Of a stretch of 64,000 nt of DNA, positions 42,796 to 46,565 are shown in pieces. The stretch is from Alphaproteobacteria bacterium. GTDB lineage: Bacteria; Pseudomonadota; Alphaproteobacteria; Rs-D84. The position numbers and the translations under genes are program-made. Location: contig JAGCVZ010000013.1 in the NCBI GenBank assembly GCA_017962125.1, positions 18,509 through 82,508 of the forward strand. Direction: 5' to 3'. A model generated the notes under the pieces. It ran no database searches and had not been told where the DNA came from. It saw nothing but the letters and a program-made list of their open reading frames with translations. Positions within the stretch are counted from its first letter, which is position 1. Every line of letters starts with the position of its first letter.

Positions 42796-42955
42796 AGATT
42801 TTGTTATTTGTAGTTTGTTATAAAAATATTAAGATTCTGATAAAAATCACCCAGATGGACAGTGGTTTCATTGGGTGTAGTTCCCGAGCCGAATTATTAG
42901 AAATTGGTCGAGAGATTGATTATTTGAAAGATAAATTATGGTTTGTGGATTTGAT

Positions 42956-43519
42956 TTAGACATATTTTTTAATTTTATTTCCACAAACTTTATAAATCTT
43001 GGTATGTTTTGGTATTTTTTTTAATATAATCGGTAATGTATCTTGGTCATAGTTCCATGTCCATTTTATTCCATTCCATAACCCGTTAAATGTTTCTTTA
43101 TATGTTGAACGTTCTATACCTAATTTTCTTTTAATATATATTTTTATCTGGCGATATACACGAGTTATTCTTGATGGTGAAACAATATGTATCTCTGTTG
43201 CACGTTTTAAAACTGGATTTATCCAATCAGAAAAAGATGCGCCCTCGGATACCCAATTTTGTGTGTTTGCAAATTCTTGTGCCATACGTGTTCGTTCTGA
43301 TTCACTTCGTTTACGTGATATAGAACCTGAATTATCATGATATATTTCGTCCAAATGATGTAAAGGTAATTTTTTTGAAATAGCTAGTTTACGTGCATAT
43401 GTAGTTTTTCCAGAACCTGGTGCACCAATAATATGAATTCGTGGCATAACATATCCTTGTGTTTTTATGAAACTATACCATAAAAAGTTCAAAAGCAGTA
43501 TAAAAATAGCCTTTTTCAA
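42956..43519 (-). CDS. P-loop kinase (topology modulation protein FlaR / adenylate kinase-like), cassette gene
   Basis: 187 aa with Walker A IIGAPGSGKTT. Shares the upstream junction module with the next two minus-strand genes. Confidence 0.55.
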   Translation of the reverse strand: MKKAIFILLLNFLWYSFIKTQGYVMPRIHIIGAPGSGKTTYARKLAISKKLPLHHLDEIYHDNSGSISRKRSESERTRMAQEFANTQNWVSEGASFSDWINPVLKRATEIHIVSPSRITRVYRQIKIYIKRKLGIERSTYKETFNGLWNGIKWTWNYDQDTLPIILKKIPKHTKIYKVCGNKIKKYV

Positions 43520-43596
43520 AAAGATAACTTTCGAACTTTTTGTGGGTATTGGAAAACAAATAAAAAACCGCTCTGAAACGAACGGTTGTCTATCTT

Positions 43597-43775
43597 GGTT
43601 GCGGGGGATGGATTTACTTCGTCACCTTGGCTCATTCGCTACGCTCACCGGTGCACTTTCGTTCACCTTTCGCCTACGGTTGAACCACGCTTTTTCGGTG
43701 GTCCAAACCCAACACAACACACGTTAAACAAAAAATACACCACAAAGGTGTATTTTTTATTTAAACTGGTTGTGC
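43597..43775 (+). repeat. att-like copy of the tRNA-fMet 3' end (TGGTTGCGGGGGATGGATTT) plus the shared 150-nt element S, copy 1
   Basis: Near-identical to 46183-46351. The first ~22 nt match the 3' end of tRNA-fMet at 46352-46373. Contains a hairpin (TACACCACAAAGGTGTA) with flanking T-runs. Confidence 0.8.
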
Positions 43776-43853
43776 TCGGTGTGCGGTTCTCGAACTGATA
43801 ACTATATGGATTTAATAGCATTTGTACGAGAAATACAAATTTTTAAAGATAAA

Positions 43854-44987
43854 TTACTTTTGTTTTGATTTTACCGATTTGTTAGTATTACGTTGATTTG
43901 CATATTCTGACAAAGCGACATCGAAAGCATCTTGACCATCTTTACATGCGATATCCGGTTTATAGCCATTTAATTCAAAATTCTTAACAAACATTTCACG
44001 ATATACACAACCGACATTAAATGTCATATTACTATGTGGCAACAAGATATACGCATAATTATACCCGTATACTTCACCACCACATGTGTTTGTACCGATA
44101 AATTTTATATTTGGATAATTAAGCATCTGTGTACAGACCACTTCCCCGGCAGACATTACTTTACCATTTATTAACATGTATATTTGACCATTAAATCCTG
44201 CTTTTTTAGCATCAAATTCTGGTAAAGCGTTTTTGCTAGCATCTTTAAAAATCACAGGATCTTCGTTTGATTCTATGTTAAATTTATTCCCATTAAAATG
44301 TTCATATAATTTTTTTACTGCATTTGCATCTGGATTATTACGTATAAAAACTCTGCGTGCTGCAGGGTAATGATATCCCAGGATATATGATGTTAATTTT
44401 ATCGTTGGCCTATCACTGCCACCATCGTTATCTCGTAAATCAATAATCAGAGTTTTTGCTTTTGGTAACATTGTTTGCCACTGTTGTTCAAATTCTTCTT
44501 TTTCTTCCGGAGTCCAATTAAACAATGTTCGAATACCGATTATACCAATGTCATTTTTTAATTTGACAATAAACTTTTTATCACCCGCAACATTAGAACC
44601 AACATTTGGTCGTTGTTTGCGCAACCTTGTTCGTACACCCTTATCATGCCCGATCATACGAAGGCTTATATGGTTATCTGGTATGATTTCAATGGCTGGT
44701 TTTAATTTTTCCAATAATTCTAACGATGTCATATCGTGTGCATTTTTGTGGATTTCTATCAGTATTTGCAAAATTTTGCGTTTCAGTATTTTATCATGAA
44801 AAGGCCATCCACAATACACATTTACCAGCACACGCGCGAACACAGATACTTCATGCTGGACTTGTTTCGCGGTAAGCATTGTATCAGGGGATTTTGCTTT
44901 TGTGTCGCCGGATGCCACTAAATCACTTGTCTTGGAATCCTGCAACAAAAAATATTCCATTTCCTTAATTGACGGTATTTTGACCAT
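43854..44987 (-). CDS. S41-family peptidase (C-terminal processing/tail-specific protease-like), cassette gene
   Basis: 377 aa. LIIDLRDNDGG and NGKVMSAGEVV boxes match the S41 catalytic Ser/Lys region. Confidence 0.55.
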   Translation of the reverse strand: MVKIPSIKEMEYFLLQDSKTSDLVASGDTKAKSPDTMLTAKQVQHEVSVFARVLVNVYCGWPFHDKILKRKILQILIEIHKNAHDMTSLELLEKLKPAIEIIPDNHISLRMIGHDKGVRTRLRKQRPNVGSNVAGDKKFIVKLKNDIGIIGIRTLFNWTPEEKEEFEQQWQTMLPKAKTLIIDLRDNDGGSDRPTIKLTSYILGYHYPAARRVFIRNNPDANAVKKLYEHFNGNKFNIESNEDPVIFKDASKNALPEFDAKKAGFNGQIYMLINGKVMSAGEVVCTQMLNYPNIKFIGTNTCGGEVYGYNYAYILLPHSNMTFNVGCVYREMFVKNFELNGYKPDIACKDGQDAFDVALSEYANQRNTNKSVKSKQK

Positions 44988-45195
44988 AAATAATCCTTTT
45001 TACGAATTATATCATAAAAAGTTCAAAAGTGGCGAAAATTTTCCGATTTTTTAAATTTAACTTTCGAACTTTTTGTAGGTATTAGTAAAAACTTGCCCCG
45101 GTGGGCAAGTTTTGAAACTCTGGTTGTGCAGTGCGTGCGGTCCTCGAGCCGAATTATTGGAAATAAGGCTAGATATTAATAGAGTAAAAGATAAA

Positions 45196-45939
45196 TTACC
45201 TGATATTAGATTGTTTCCATCTTAATGCGTTTAGAAGATAATTTCTGGCTAATTCAATATCAAATAATCCAGCACGTCGCAATTGACCCTCGGCATCAAT
45301 CCAAGTATCGTATTCTTGTGGCAAAATTCCAGAAATTTTATTCAAATTATATTCAACGTTATCAGCCGACATACCGCCGGCATAACCAAATTGAATATCT
45401 TTGTATACTGGAGTGTCCCAATGATCTGGAGACCTACCAATACCGTAAGATGCATCAAATAATAATTTAAATTTTGTACTGAATTTTTTTAACTCATAAA
45501 TTTGTGGCTTTGTATTTTGATTAAATGGAAATATAAATTCACAATCTGGAAAACACTTGAACAAACCTATAATTTTATTTGGTACAAAAGTTGTCGTATT
45601 ATCACCAATATTCAACTGAACACGTTTTATCAAAGATTTATTTGATTTATTATTTTTGCGACTAAGCCATCCAGCTATTTCGCTAGGAATTAAGCCATTT
45701 GACATATAGTCACACCATTCATAATTTACATGTAATGCAAGATTAGGTTGTATTGTCAAACTTTCAACAGCATCTAATAAATTATTCATCCACTCATTGC
45801 GTGGCATGCCAACAATCATCGCACTTTTATGCGCCTGAATTCCTAATTCCGCCAACGGTGATATTTGTAGTAACTTTATCGTTTCTTCTATTGATAAATT
45901 CTCACGCGGATCAGACATAGTTATATAACGCAAGTGCAT
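45196..45939 (-). CDS. Hypothetical protein (possible TIM-barrel/PRAI-like), cassette gene
   Basis: 247 aa. A weak FGYAGGMSADNV box. Preceded by the conserved promoter module (TTGCAT...TGtTATAAT). Confidence 0.45.
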   Translation of the reverse strand: MHLRYITMSDPRENLSIEETIKLLQISPLAELGIQAHKSAMIVGMPRNEWMNNLLDAVESLTIQPNLALHVNYEWCDYMSNGLIPSEIAGWLSRKNNKSNKSLIKRVQLNIGDNTTTFVPNKIIGLFKCFPDCEFIFPFNQNTKPQIYELKKFSTKFKLLFDASYGIGRSPDHWDTPVYKDIQFGYAGGMSADNVEYNLNKISGILPQEYDTWIDAEGQLRRAGLFDIELARNYLLNALRWKQSNIR

Positions 45940-46182
45940 GTAACCCCCTTTTTATTATTTTTACAACAAGTGATTATAACATAAAAAGTTCAAATGCAAT
46001 ATAAAAATAACCTTTTTCAAAAAGATAACTTTCGAACTTTTTGTAGGTATTGGAAAACAAATAAAAACTTGCCCCGGTGGGCAAGTTTTTGATACAGCCC
46101 GTCTTCGTCCTTTGGACTATGGCGCGGCACTGAATTTTCTAAACAAAAATACCGCAAACGCGGTATTTTTAGAAAATTCGTG

Positions 46183-46351
46183 GTTGCGGGGGATGGATTT
46201 ACTTCGTCACCTTGGCTCATTCGCTACGCTCACCGGTGCACTTTCGTTCACCTTTCGCCTACGGTTGAACCACGCTTTTTCGGTGGTCCAAATCCAACAC
46301 AACACACGTTAAACAAAAAATACACCACAAAGGTGTATTTTTTATTTAAAC
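46183..46351 (+). repeat. att-like copy of the tRNA-fMet 3' end plus shared 150-nt element S, copy 2 (directly abutting tRNA-fMet)
   Basis: Matches 43597-43775 with a single mismatch (C/T). Confidence 0.8.
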
Positions 46352-46428
46352 TGGTTGCGGGGGATGGATTTGAACCACCGACCTTCAGGTTATGAGCCTG
46401 ACGAGCTACCGGACTGCTCTACCCCGCG
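46352..46428 (-). tRNA. Initiator tRNA-fMet (anticodon CAU)
   Basis: The reverse complement is CGCGGGGTAGAGCAGTCCGGTAGCTCGTCAGGCTCATAACCTGAAGGTCGGTGGTTCAAATCCATCCCCCGCAACCA. It has a C1xA72 mismatch and a GC-rich anticodon stem, as in bacterial initiator tRNAs. Confidence 0.8.
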
Positions 46429-46565
46429 ATAAGTGGCATTAATTATATATCTTATTTTATTATTGTCAAACAAAATATGATTTTTTTAATAAAATACGTG
46501 GTTATCTGTTTATGTATTATTTTCGATTTATATATGGATAGAAATATGATATAATACGAAACTAG

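Follow-up and report, generated by a model that had tools for sequence, protein, structure and literature searches.

A tRNA-anchored array of single-gene units in Candidatus Enterousia that looks like a gene-swapping site of an undescribed kind

The array behind tRNA-fMet and its modules

The DNA analysed here, a stretch of 64,000 nucleotides (64 kb; hereafter the window), comes from an alphaproteobacterium of the gut, a member of the Candidatus Enterousia group in the order Rs-D84, whose genomes measure less than 1 Mb (PMC12306168). On the 3' side of its tRNA-fMet gene lie three consecutive minus-strand genes, each packaged with the same kinds of short repeated module. Since different strains and species carry different units at this place, the locus looks like a site of gene swapping, and one of a kind that has not been described. 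The unit consists of a terminator hairpin (X), a promoter module (P), usually one cargo gene and sometimes two, and an end module (D); the window array also holds gene-less elements (E) and partial copies of the tRNA 3' end. From the tRNA outward, its features are the following.

46442-46469, minus strand: promoter of tRNA-fMet, TTGACA-16-TATAAT (consensus scan, 12/12 match)
46352-46428, minus strand: tRNA-fMet (CAT), the anchor of the array (ARAGORN and Rfam), with the 3' end ...AAATCCATCCCCCGCAACCA
46201-46351, minus strand: E element, copy a, starting exactly after the tRNA CCA; terminator hairpin at 46309-46349, GC-rich body
46181-46200, minus strand: partial tRNA-fMet 3' end, copy b, exact over 20 nt, which closes E copy a
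46095-46180, minus strand: "dflank" segment of class CGAATTTTCTAAAAATAC..., with a terminator hairpin (~46144-46171)
about 46062-46090, minus strand: X hairpin of the H class, a bidirectional terminator, containing the 28-mer TAAAAACTTGCCCCGGTGGGCAAGTTTT
45973-46067, minus strand: P module 3, extended -10 TGTTATAAT, predicted promoter of the 247-aa gene, with two inverted AGTTCGAAAGT-type arms
45196-45939, minus strand: cargo gene 1, a 247-aa predicted TIM-barrel protein (open reading frame; AlphaFold2 and Foldseek)
45121-45225, plus strand: D module 3, head at 45121-45153; micro-ORF WLCSACGPRAELLEIRLDINRVKDKLPDIRLFPS and stop; the cassette strand ends ...GCACAACCA
45086-45113, minus strand: X hairpin of the H class, TAAAAACTTGCCCCGGTGGGCAAGTTTT, an exact 28-nt repeat of 46062-46089
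45003-45089, minus strand: P module 2, extended -10 TGATATAAT, predicted promoter of the S41 gene
43854-44987, minus strand: cargo gene 2, an S41-family peptidase of 377 aa (Pfam PF03572, E = 1.6e-16)
43767-43868, plus strand: D module 2, of a subfamily with a 4-codon in-frame insertion; micro-ORF WLCSVCGSRTDNYMDLIAFVREIQIFKDKLLLF and stop
43616-43766, minus strand: E element, copy b, matching copy a at 99% identity and sitting exactly after the CAACCA of D module 2
43596-43615, minus strand: partial tRNA-fMet 3' end, copy c, exact over 20 nt
43566-43595, minus strand: X hairpin of class AGATAGACAACCG..., a terminator
43471-43566, minus strand: P module 1, extended -10 TGGTATAGT, predicted promoter of the kinase gene
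42956-43447, minus strand: cargo gene 3, a P-loop kinase resembling nucleoside monophosphate kinases (FlaR or "DNA topology modulation" type), 163 aa as called
42939-42958, minus strand: degenerate partial tRNA-fMet 3' end TAAATCAAATCCACAAACCA, read from the sequence, overlapping the kinase stop codon
42842-42938, plus strand: D module 1 (42869-42938), of the three copies the farthest from the tRNA, and the terminal hairpin AAACCACTGTCCATCTGGGTGATTTTT (~42842-42868, cassette strand)

All the elements listed in a first-pass annotation of the window were recovered at, or a few bases from, the positions it gave, among them the three open reading frames (ORFs; 42956-43519, 43854-44987 and 45196-45939). 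Four independent public assemblies have the same arrangement at at least 99.9% identity, with the array identical across them, so that it is not an assembly artefact. The kinase ORF is open back to 43519, and public annotation starts it at 43447 (163 aa); its product scores best, always under the cut-off of the model, against PRK08118 ("DNA topology modulation protein") and models of adenylate kinase. The 247-aa protein has no Pfam, NCBIfam or PDB sequence match. Its AlphaFold2 model, with a predicted local distance difference test score of 94, aligns in Foldseek at a template modelling score of ~0.5 to TIM barrels of the aldolase and PRAI type, a similarity that is generic (KDPG/HOG aldolases, PRAI and pyruvate kinase barrels); a specific function was rejected, the predicted fold being a generic TIM barrel. 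Homologues of this protein stand in unrelated contexts in other species, beside tRNA-Glu, tRNA-Val or argC, and come, like the DNA matches to the junction module, from metagenome-assembled genomes (MAGs) of gut and rumen labelled Alphaproteobacteria or Candidatus Enterousia.

Two of the P modules, 43474-43566 and 45975-46067, are 95% identical over 93 nt, and the third, 45035-45089, is 76-78% identical to them over 55 nt; the extended -10 (TGnTATAAT or TGnTATAGT) is present in all three, which bears out the common promoter module, at 76-95% identity, that had been described ahead of each gene. Across loci, P is ~95 nt long and holds an inverted pair of AGTTCGAAAGT arms at a constant span of 55-56 nt, the right arm overlapping the spacer of the extended -10 promoter. 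The possibility that the inverted repeat is a structured hairpin with covariation was rejected: the two arms conform to a single consensus without evident compensatory changes, which suggests paired operator sites. A lone arm of this type, AAAAAGTTCGAAAATT, lies outside the array at 47098-47115, ahead of the TGATATAAT promoter of a second orphan gene, so the operator motif is not confined to cassettes; apart from this arm, modules were found in the 64 kb at the array locus only. The hairpin reported beside two of the promoter modules recurs as the exact 28-mer at 45086 and 46062. An A-run ahead of X and a T-run behind it, found in 87 of 121 copies, mark it as a bidirectional terminator.

The D module is ~110 nt long. 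Its head of 33 nt is near-invariant and far better conserved than the tail, follows the pattern TCRGYTCG-N6-GCAC-N5-GCACAACCA and ends in CAACCA; a pattern with 21 specified head positions is matched exactly in 81 of the 100 D copies that a model of the tail alone detected. On the gene strand the copies in the window begin TAATTTATCTTT. The motif AAAGATAAATTA, previously said to end each gene, is indeed present three times (42927, 43845 and 45187), within a module of 48-70 nt that is 73-75% identical between copies, but the copy at the kinase gene lies 17 nt beyond the stop codon and not at it. Likewise, the adjoining pieces that had been taken for degenerate, att-like tRNA 3' ends are not merely decayed tRNA: they are the conserved head of a lineage-wide module of ~110 nt that also contains a protein-like frame, and CAACCA alone is securely shared with the tRNA. 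In D module 1 the CAACCA of the head has decayed, and a remnant of the micro-ORF, ...GCSSRAELLEIGREIDYLKDKLWFVDLI and stop, runs on the plus strand to 42959.

The tail of D varies with a period of three bases: mean column entropy is 1.11 at the first codon position, 0.87 at the second and 1.43 at the third. On the strand that faces the other way from the tRNA, D reads as a micro-ORF with the consensus WLCxxCNSRAELxEIGxEIxxxKDKLxLxNLH and a stop, of modal length 32 codons, with consistent start and stop positions and with subfamilies set by in-frame insertions of 3-4 codons. In this frame the ratio of non-synonymous to synonymous polymorphism (pN/pS) is 0.59, and none of the other five frames has replacements as conservative. 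The tail keeps a protein-like frame of 32 codons, which may or may not be translated; neither a Shine-Dalgarno sequence nor a predicted promoter nor a conserved upstream extension was found for it. Four other readings of the module were rejected. A coding frame on the cassette strand has a similar pN/pS of 0.63, with non-conservative replacements (BLOSUM score of -1.33 against -0.48) and inconsistent ORF ends; for D as part of a larger protein, upstream open lengths are random, the protein database gives only orphans of 32-76 aa, and there is no Pfam match; as a fixed stop codon or tail for the cargo, D would not fit stop offsets spread over 56-223 nt; and attC-like folding as single-stranded DNA fails on either strand (z = -0.07 to -0.75).

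At its far end D can also carry a promoter: 27 of 121 copies (about 22%) end in an extended -10 for a leftward gene. In one subfamily the micro-ORF ends in KFMI and stop, encoded by AAATTTATGATATAA (L013, L005 at ~330-345, L020, L026, L045, L048 and others), and these codons with the next base make TTTATGATATAAT, the extended -10 promoter of the leftward cargo gene. To the right of some D heads lies a GC-rich flank of the class CCCTTCGCGTCTGCGACGC...GGTGGCAGGCCAC (L050, L063, L087 and L088), which has no Rfam match.

The last 20 nt of tRNA-fMet, TGGTTGCGGGGGATGGATTT, occur in three exact copies (43596, 46181 and 46352) where 0.02 would be expected from shuffled sequence, in agreement with the recurrence of the tRNA end noted earlier. 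Together with the 20-mer, E forms a repeat (43593-43772 and 46178-46357) that had been described as an identical element of 150 nt; the repeat is present, at an actual length of 180 nt with 2 mismatches. The fold of E has z = -5.6. The dflank type of sequence next to copy a is found in other species directly after a D head, and D modules of the D2 subfamily are in other genomes usually followed by an E-like element; heads of the D2 type followed by H-class hairpins are also seen in linear arrays of other species. The partial tRNA end of copy c and the sequence downstream of it are orthologous to the real tRNA end and its flank in L030. The degenerate end TAAATCAAATCCACAAACCA, directly ahead of D module 1 and overlapping the last kinase codons, has a counterpart in L030 as well.

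E-like elements occur in many genomes, where they start exactly after CAACCA, contain a strong terminator, an inverted degenerate T-arm and 3' half and GC-rich hairpins, lack genes, and end in an exact copy of the tRNA 3' end of ~20 nt (fMet) or ~19 nt (Gln); behind tRNA-Gln the layout is the same, with Gln-derived ends. Integration at a tRNA gene classically leaves a footprint of this kind. The inverted degenerate tRNA-fMet T-arm and 3' half lies on the plus strand of the window copies (46272-46298, and likewise inside 43616-43766), reading TCGGTGGTCCAAATCCAACACAACACA against TCGGTGGTTCAAATCCATCCCCCGCAACCA in the tRNA; with the exact tRNA end, this inverted pseudo-end gives E two att-like sites in inverted orientation. 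An Rfam scan of the window and 20 related loci recovered tRNAs only; E, D and P were unmatched, and the low-scoring matches are chance.

Distribution and variation of the arrays

The search pattern for D was derived from L005, a contig of a related species in which four small unrelated genes are each separated by a D-hairpin-P junction. Among 185,579 species genomes it found 90 blocks, 89 of them in the Enterousia lineage, in 75 assemblies, and one a chance match in Streptomyces; there were 0 matches in 2.9 million viral contigs. A profile search gave 134 D copies in 95 loci. These related loci are 8-kb blocks from MAGs, in which repeats are possibly collapsed or misassembled, and their gene calls are ORF heuristics, so that some antisense ORFs over repeat modules are spurious. 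The wider search for the module that the first-pass annotation had suggested thus located many further arrays (the 89 blocks), and the recombinase expected to be linked with them was not among the findings, no element-encoded recombinase being found in any of the 95 loci. The same holds for the window: as stated earlier of its units, the array encodes none, and none was found in the 10 kb to the left or right of it.

Each array begins at the CCA of an intact tRNA, which is tRNA-Gln(CTG) in 36 loci, tRNA-Gln(TTG) in 5 and tRNA-fMet in 16. The 56 blocks that hold tRNA-Gln or tRNA-fMet contain 78 D copies, every one of them downstream of the tRNA and in the same orientation. Of the tRNAs encountered, tRNA-Gln (both isoacceptors) and tRNA-fMet alone have a CAACCA 3' end, which is absent from those for Val, Thr, Ala, Glu and elongator Met. 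Sorting of 184 junctions with CAACCA on the left by their left partner gave 100 D heads, 34 full and 22 partial tRNA-Gln ends, and 16 full and 12 partial tRNA-fMet ends, which makes 34 partial tRNA ends in total. The X classes follow all five kinds of left partner interchangeably. Genes that recur in the flanks encode CBAH, DUF1015, DUF374, LpxK, LpxC, autotransporters and similar proteins.

The cargo is varied. Grouping of 75 cargo ORFs gave 48 families of small enzymes, among them S41 peptidase, kinases, alpha/beta hydrolase, methyltransferase, ADP-ribosyltransferase, histidine phosphatase, NUDIX, HD, GNAT, APH, ABC transporter and NADAR families. Cargo genes mostly face away from the tRNA; a sizeable minority face it and have as their promoter the predicted extended -10 at the far end of D (the 27 of 121 copies above). 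The picture of single-orientation cargo at tRNA-fMet only, which the window by itself had given, accordingly does not extend to the lineage, in which cargo faces either way and tRNA-Gln is also used.

The tRNA-fMet locus is syntenic across species, with LpxC, LpxK and DUF374 genes on one side and YchF and a SufBD-like gene on the other, and the cargo at this syntenic place is different in every species. Units recur at other loci. The S41 cassette of the window is 90% identical to the second cassette of the tRNA-Gln array in L070, with P module 2 100% identical to the P of that cassette, and the kinase cassette stands directly behind tRNA-fMet in L030, at 85% identity against 68% in the core flanks, and in a tRNA-Gln array in L048, at 78% identity. 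A tRNA-fMet array (L047) and a tRNA-Gln array (L086) have one cassette in common at 94% identity, with the rest unalignable, and L067 and L099 likewise have one at 95.6%, the rest of the loci being unalignable. In one pair of species a filled and an empty site can be compared directly: in L028 the CAACCA of tRNA-fMet is followed by GTTAAAT (E-like), and in L097 the same CAACCA is followed by X-P-gene-D, ending ...GCACAACCA, and then by GTTAAAT (E-like), with ~1060 nt extra. The two junctions have identity in common over only ~6-9 nt.

Change is also seen within the species of the window. Two strains with a core identity of ~99.9% differ from that of the window: L119 is without the 2585-bp block of the 247-aa and S41 genes and keeps one E copy, and in L111 the place beside the tRNA is taken by another E-like element, the remnant of a P module and a NADAR gene facing leftward. 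The proposal of a dynamic cassette array at a tRNA 3' end is upheld by these whole-cassette differences between strains, and when the converse, the same three genes in relatives, was looked for, the relatives were found to carry different genes. A fixed, ancient, duplication-rich stretch or a decayed remnant of a prophage or integrative and conjugative element, devoid of dynamics, would be consistent with the identity of four independent assemblies of the window type across the array and with the decay of D module 1. We regard it as very improbable, because strains that are 99.9% identical differ by whole cassettes and the cargo at the syntenic locus differs per species, both of which we count as refuting it; the array moreover lacks phage and conjugation genes, and viral contigs gave 0 matches.

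Contig or unitig ends at module borders (L003, L004, L104 and L105) were considered as evidence of circles or of polymorphism and rejected, since such ends arise from k-mer repeats and from modules common to co-occurring species.

Possible routes of insertion and exchange

The exact junction at CAACCA, the strict polarity, the att-type duplications and the insertion with ~6-9 nt of common identity point to a site-specific exchange at or next to CAACCA. Tyrosine recombinases require an identical overlap of 6-8 bp. No tyrosine or serine recombinase emerged when 528 ORFs were screened for motifs, and tblastn with XerD and a consensus query against the 736 kb of DNA that carries the arrays gave 0 matches, both being crude screens with hand-written motifs and queries; an enzyme of this kind must then act in trans. 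We consider it probable that the arrays grow by serial site-specific integration at tRNA 3' ends, catalysed by an unlinked recombinase, with the D head as a portable attachment site. The data show the anatomy of the arrays, the precision of the junctions, the polarity, the distribution over the lineage and the variation both between species and among strains of one; we infer which type of enzyme acts, in which direction the arrays grow and what the D frame does.

Under this reading, a recombinase encoded elsewhere in the genome would exchange strands in or beside CAACCA, the segment of the tRNA from T-loop to CCA serving as the chromosomal site and the D head as the site borne by the cassette. 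Each insertion would recreate a CAACCA end and so push older units away from the tRNA. The gene-less E elements might have been inserted in the same way, or might carry the att region. Once in place, the cargo would be expressed from its own P promoter or, in about one fifth of the units, leftward from the extended -10 at the end of D, with X insulating the unit from its neighbours; the operator arms, being common to the units, would point to a single regulator. Units would also be shuffled and deleted when the repeated P, D and E modules recombine by homology. A bolder version, which we put forward only tentatively, is a self-contained tRNA-end analogue of an integron, in which the 33-nt site mimics a tRNA end and is served by an unlinked and possibly non-canonical recombinase, genes are pre-packaged with a regulated promoter and a bidirectional terminator, and a 32-residue CxxC-helix micro-protein, whose frame runs across that site, would act in the recombination or its control.

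Several observations weigh against site-specific integration as the account of the arrays. Besides the two negative recombinase screens, no circular intermediates or excision junctions were observed among the assembled contigs. In L067 and L099 the X hairpins differ on both sides of a P-gene-D block that is 96-100% identical, so that the left boundary is not at CAACCA, and in other pairs the left boundary is at the gene start. The 2585-bp polymorphism lies between repeats of ~178 nt, and a RecA-dependent deletion fits it equally well. A protein-like frame in the D tail would, finally, be superfluous in a pure recombination site. X hairpins and P modules are swapped without the gene-D part; taken with the repeat-flanked polymorphism, this means that homologous recombination among modules clearly contributes.

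Homologous recombination might even suffice. On this account there is no dedicated recombinase: P and D (and E) are portable homology arms for RecA-dependent or short-homology swaps after DNA uptake, and CAACCA is just where the conserved part of D stops. The near-invariant 33-nt D head and the P arms could hide crossovers; the block common to L067 and L099 has P as its left border and the D head as its right, and the X hairpins beyond it are unrelated; the L119 deletion falls between the ~178-nt repeats; the screens found no recombinase; and the type IV pilus, type II secretion system (T2SS)-like and VirB components could serve DNA exchange. We nevertheless think this account unlikely. Where L097 is filled and L028 empty, the tRNA end and the D head have only CAACCA in common, with similarity over at most ~9 nt, which is too little for RecA; the 34 partial tRNA 3' ends and the start of E exactly after CCA are classical site-specific products; and neither the use of just the two CAACCA tRNAs nor the 78/78 polarity is predicted by homology.

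The D-X-P junction could itself be what multiplies, either as an insulated divergent promoter module resembling a miniature inverted-repeat transposable element (MITE) or as a small-gene family of the D micro-protein, spreading behind tRNAs while the cargo genes are ordinary residents. The D frame is protein-like by its pN/pS of 0.59, its conservative replacements, in-frame indels and consistent start and stop, and the leftward extended -10 in ~22% of D copies together with bidirectional X (87/121) would let D-X-P work as a two-way expression junction; the single P-type arm at 47098, outside the array, also fits. Against this, D, X and P do not behave as one unit: X is swapped independently, tRNA-X-P occurs without D, and D is often followed by an E element or another flank and not by P. 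Terminal inverted repeats or target duplications were not seen, no Shine-Dalgarno sequence or promoter precedes the micro-ORF, and unrelated genomes have the whole P-gene-D in common, cargo included, at 94-96% identity. We judge a multiplying junction to be quite improbable.

Relation to known systems, and the surrounding sequence

Integrons and clusters of attC sites lacking integron integrases (CALINs) resemble the Enterousia arrays in their mostly single-gene cassettes of one polarity, in a conserved repeat family whose end is the junction, and in a chromosome-fixed platform with diverse small-enzyme cargo and exchange between arrays. Integron cassettes commonly carry GNAT, NUDIX, small hydrolase and ADP-ribosyltransferase genes. 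The first-pass annotation had accordingly called the array integron-like, and a canonical chromosomal integron, or a CALIN that has lost its integrase, would account for the serial single-gene units, the conserved repeat after each gene and the types of cargo. This is, in our view, scarcely credible, and the label does not survive. As single-stranded DNA, D lacks the folding of an attC-type hairpin (z -0.1 to -0.75); no IntI was found in the array and 10 kb on either side, in the 528-ORF motif screen or by tblastn of 736 kb; every cassette has its own promoter, and terminators too, in place of Pc; the junctions are CAACCA at tRNA ends and not GTTRRRY; and a tRNA 3' end takes the place of attI as anchor, with cargo facing either direction.

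Closest in concept, along with integrons, are the integrative islands that target tRNA genes, such as Prochlorococcus tycheposons and "additive flexible genomic islands" (bioRxiv 10.1101/2020.12.28.424599; PMC4898812), which are alike in inserting at the 3' end of specific tRNA genes, with direct repeats of that end marking successive insertions (here the 20-mer in three copies and the 34 partial ends). In both, newer units would stand beside the tRNA and older ones be displaced outward, a growth direction that for Enterousia is our reading of the layout. Near-identical cassettes in divergent genomes, content that varies between close strains, and streamlined genomes without classical mobile elements are further likenesses. 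Unlike tycheposons, the Enterousia units have a size of ~1 kb and one gene each, and in none of the 75 assemblies was an integrase or a replication module seen on the element; their borders are mostly the 110-nt D, which shares only CAACCA with the tRNA, and not partial tRNAs; each unit has a standard promoter/operator module and a bidirectional terminator; and tRNA-Gln and tRNA-fMet draw on one cassette pool. Without a recombinase of their own, the Enterousia units would at best be cargo-only satellites.

Two further systems invite comparison. The dif (pdif) modules of Acinetobacter plasmids and integrative mobile elements exploiting Xer (IMEX) are small modules that encode no recombinase and presumably rely on a housekeeping one acting at the short sites that bound them. 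The likeness to the Enterousia units lies in small, often single-gene modules between short conserved sites; in Enterousia, by contrast, the sites are direct-oriented and end in CAACCA at tRNA genes, and the arrays are chromosomal. A dyad of the XerC/XerD type with a 6-nt spacer was not evident in the D head by inspection, no formal search having been made. The Correia elements of Neisseria are short intergenic repeats with inverted repeats that supply promoters and terminators, and they resemble the Enterousia modules as short, repeated promoter or terminator pieces with inverted repeats. The inverted repeat of P differs from those of Correia elements and MITEs in being internal, fixed in distance and operator-like, with no target duplications seen, and the Enterousia modules are confined to two tRNA-anchored arrays and not scattered over the genome.

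What is new is the combination: kilobase-sized single-gene units, an end module that mimics a tRNA end and has a protein-like frame, a standard promoter/operator and bidirectional terminator at every junction, and a pool common to two tRNA loci, all in genomes of less than 1 Mb. If the proposed integration is correct, these Rs-D84 (Enterousia) genomes keep a dedicated and standardised platform for taking up and swapping single accessory genes at two tRNA genes, and reduced, host-associated genomes would stay flexible without plasmids, phages or visible integrases. The arrays would then be a third architecture beside integrons and integrase-bearing tRNA islands, in which cargo-only units use a tRNA-end mimic for attachment and bring a promoter, operator and terminator with them. 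The pattern of the D head is in addition a simple marker with which the accessory genes of an uncultured gut lineage can be mined, and a target consisting of two CAACCA tRNAs makes the recombination chemistry directly testable.

The neighbourhood of the window array encodes LpxC, LpxK, VirB3/VirB4 and type IV pilus or T2SS-like proteins. The VirB3/VirB4 and T2SS/type IV pilus-like genes lie on either side of the array, at 33854-39500 and 51000-55000, and are possible routes of DNA exchange. Across tRNA-fMet from the array are two tandem paralogous orphan genes (46566-47120 and 47185-47748), the second of which is the one preceded by the lone operator arm. Elsewhere in the window, four tandem paralogous ORFs of 155-197 aa occupy 9268-11387 on the plus strand, and TAGTGGTTAGTGTAAGTGGTTAGTG with a terminator follows the 3' ends of two paralogous genes (1254-1430 and 2330-2547); the same motif stands after a D head in L075 and may represent another class of junction. 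The genes for tRNA-Val and a second tRNA-Met have in common a 29-nt promoter box, CTTGCAATCGGGA...TTTGTTATAAT, at 6933-6961 and 61570-61598.

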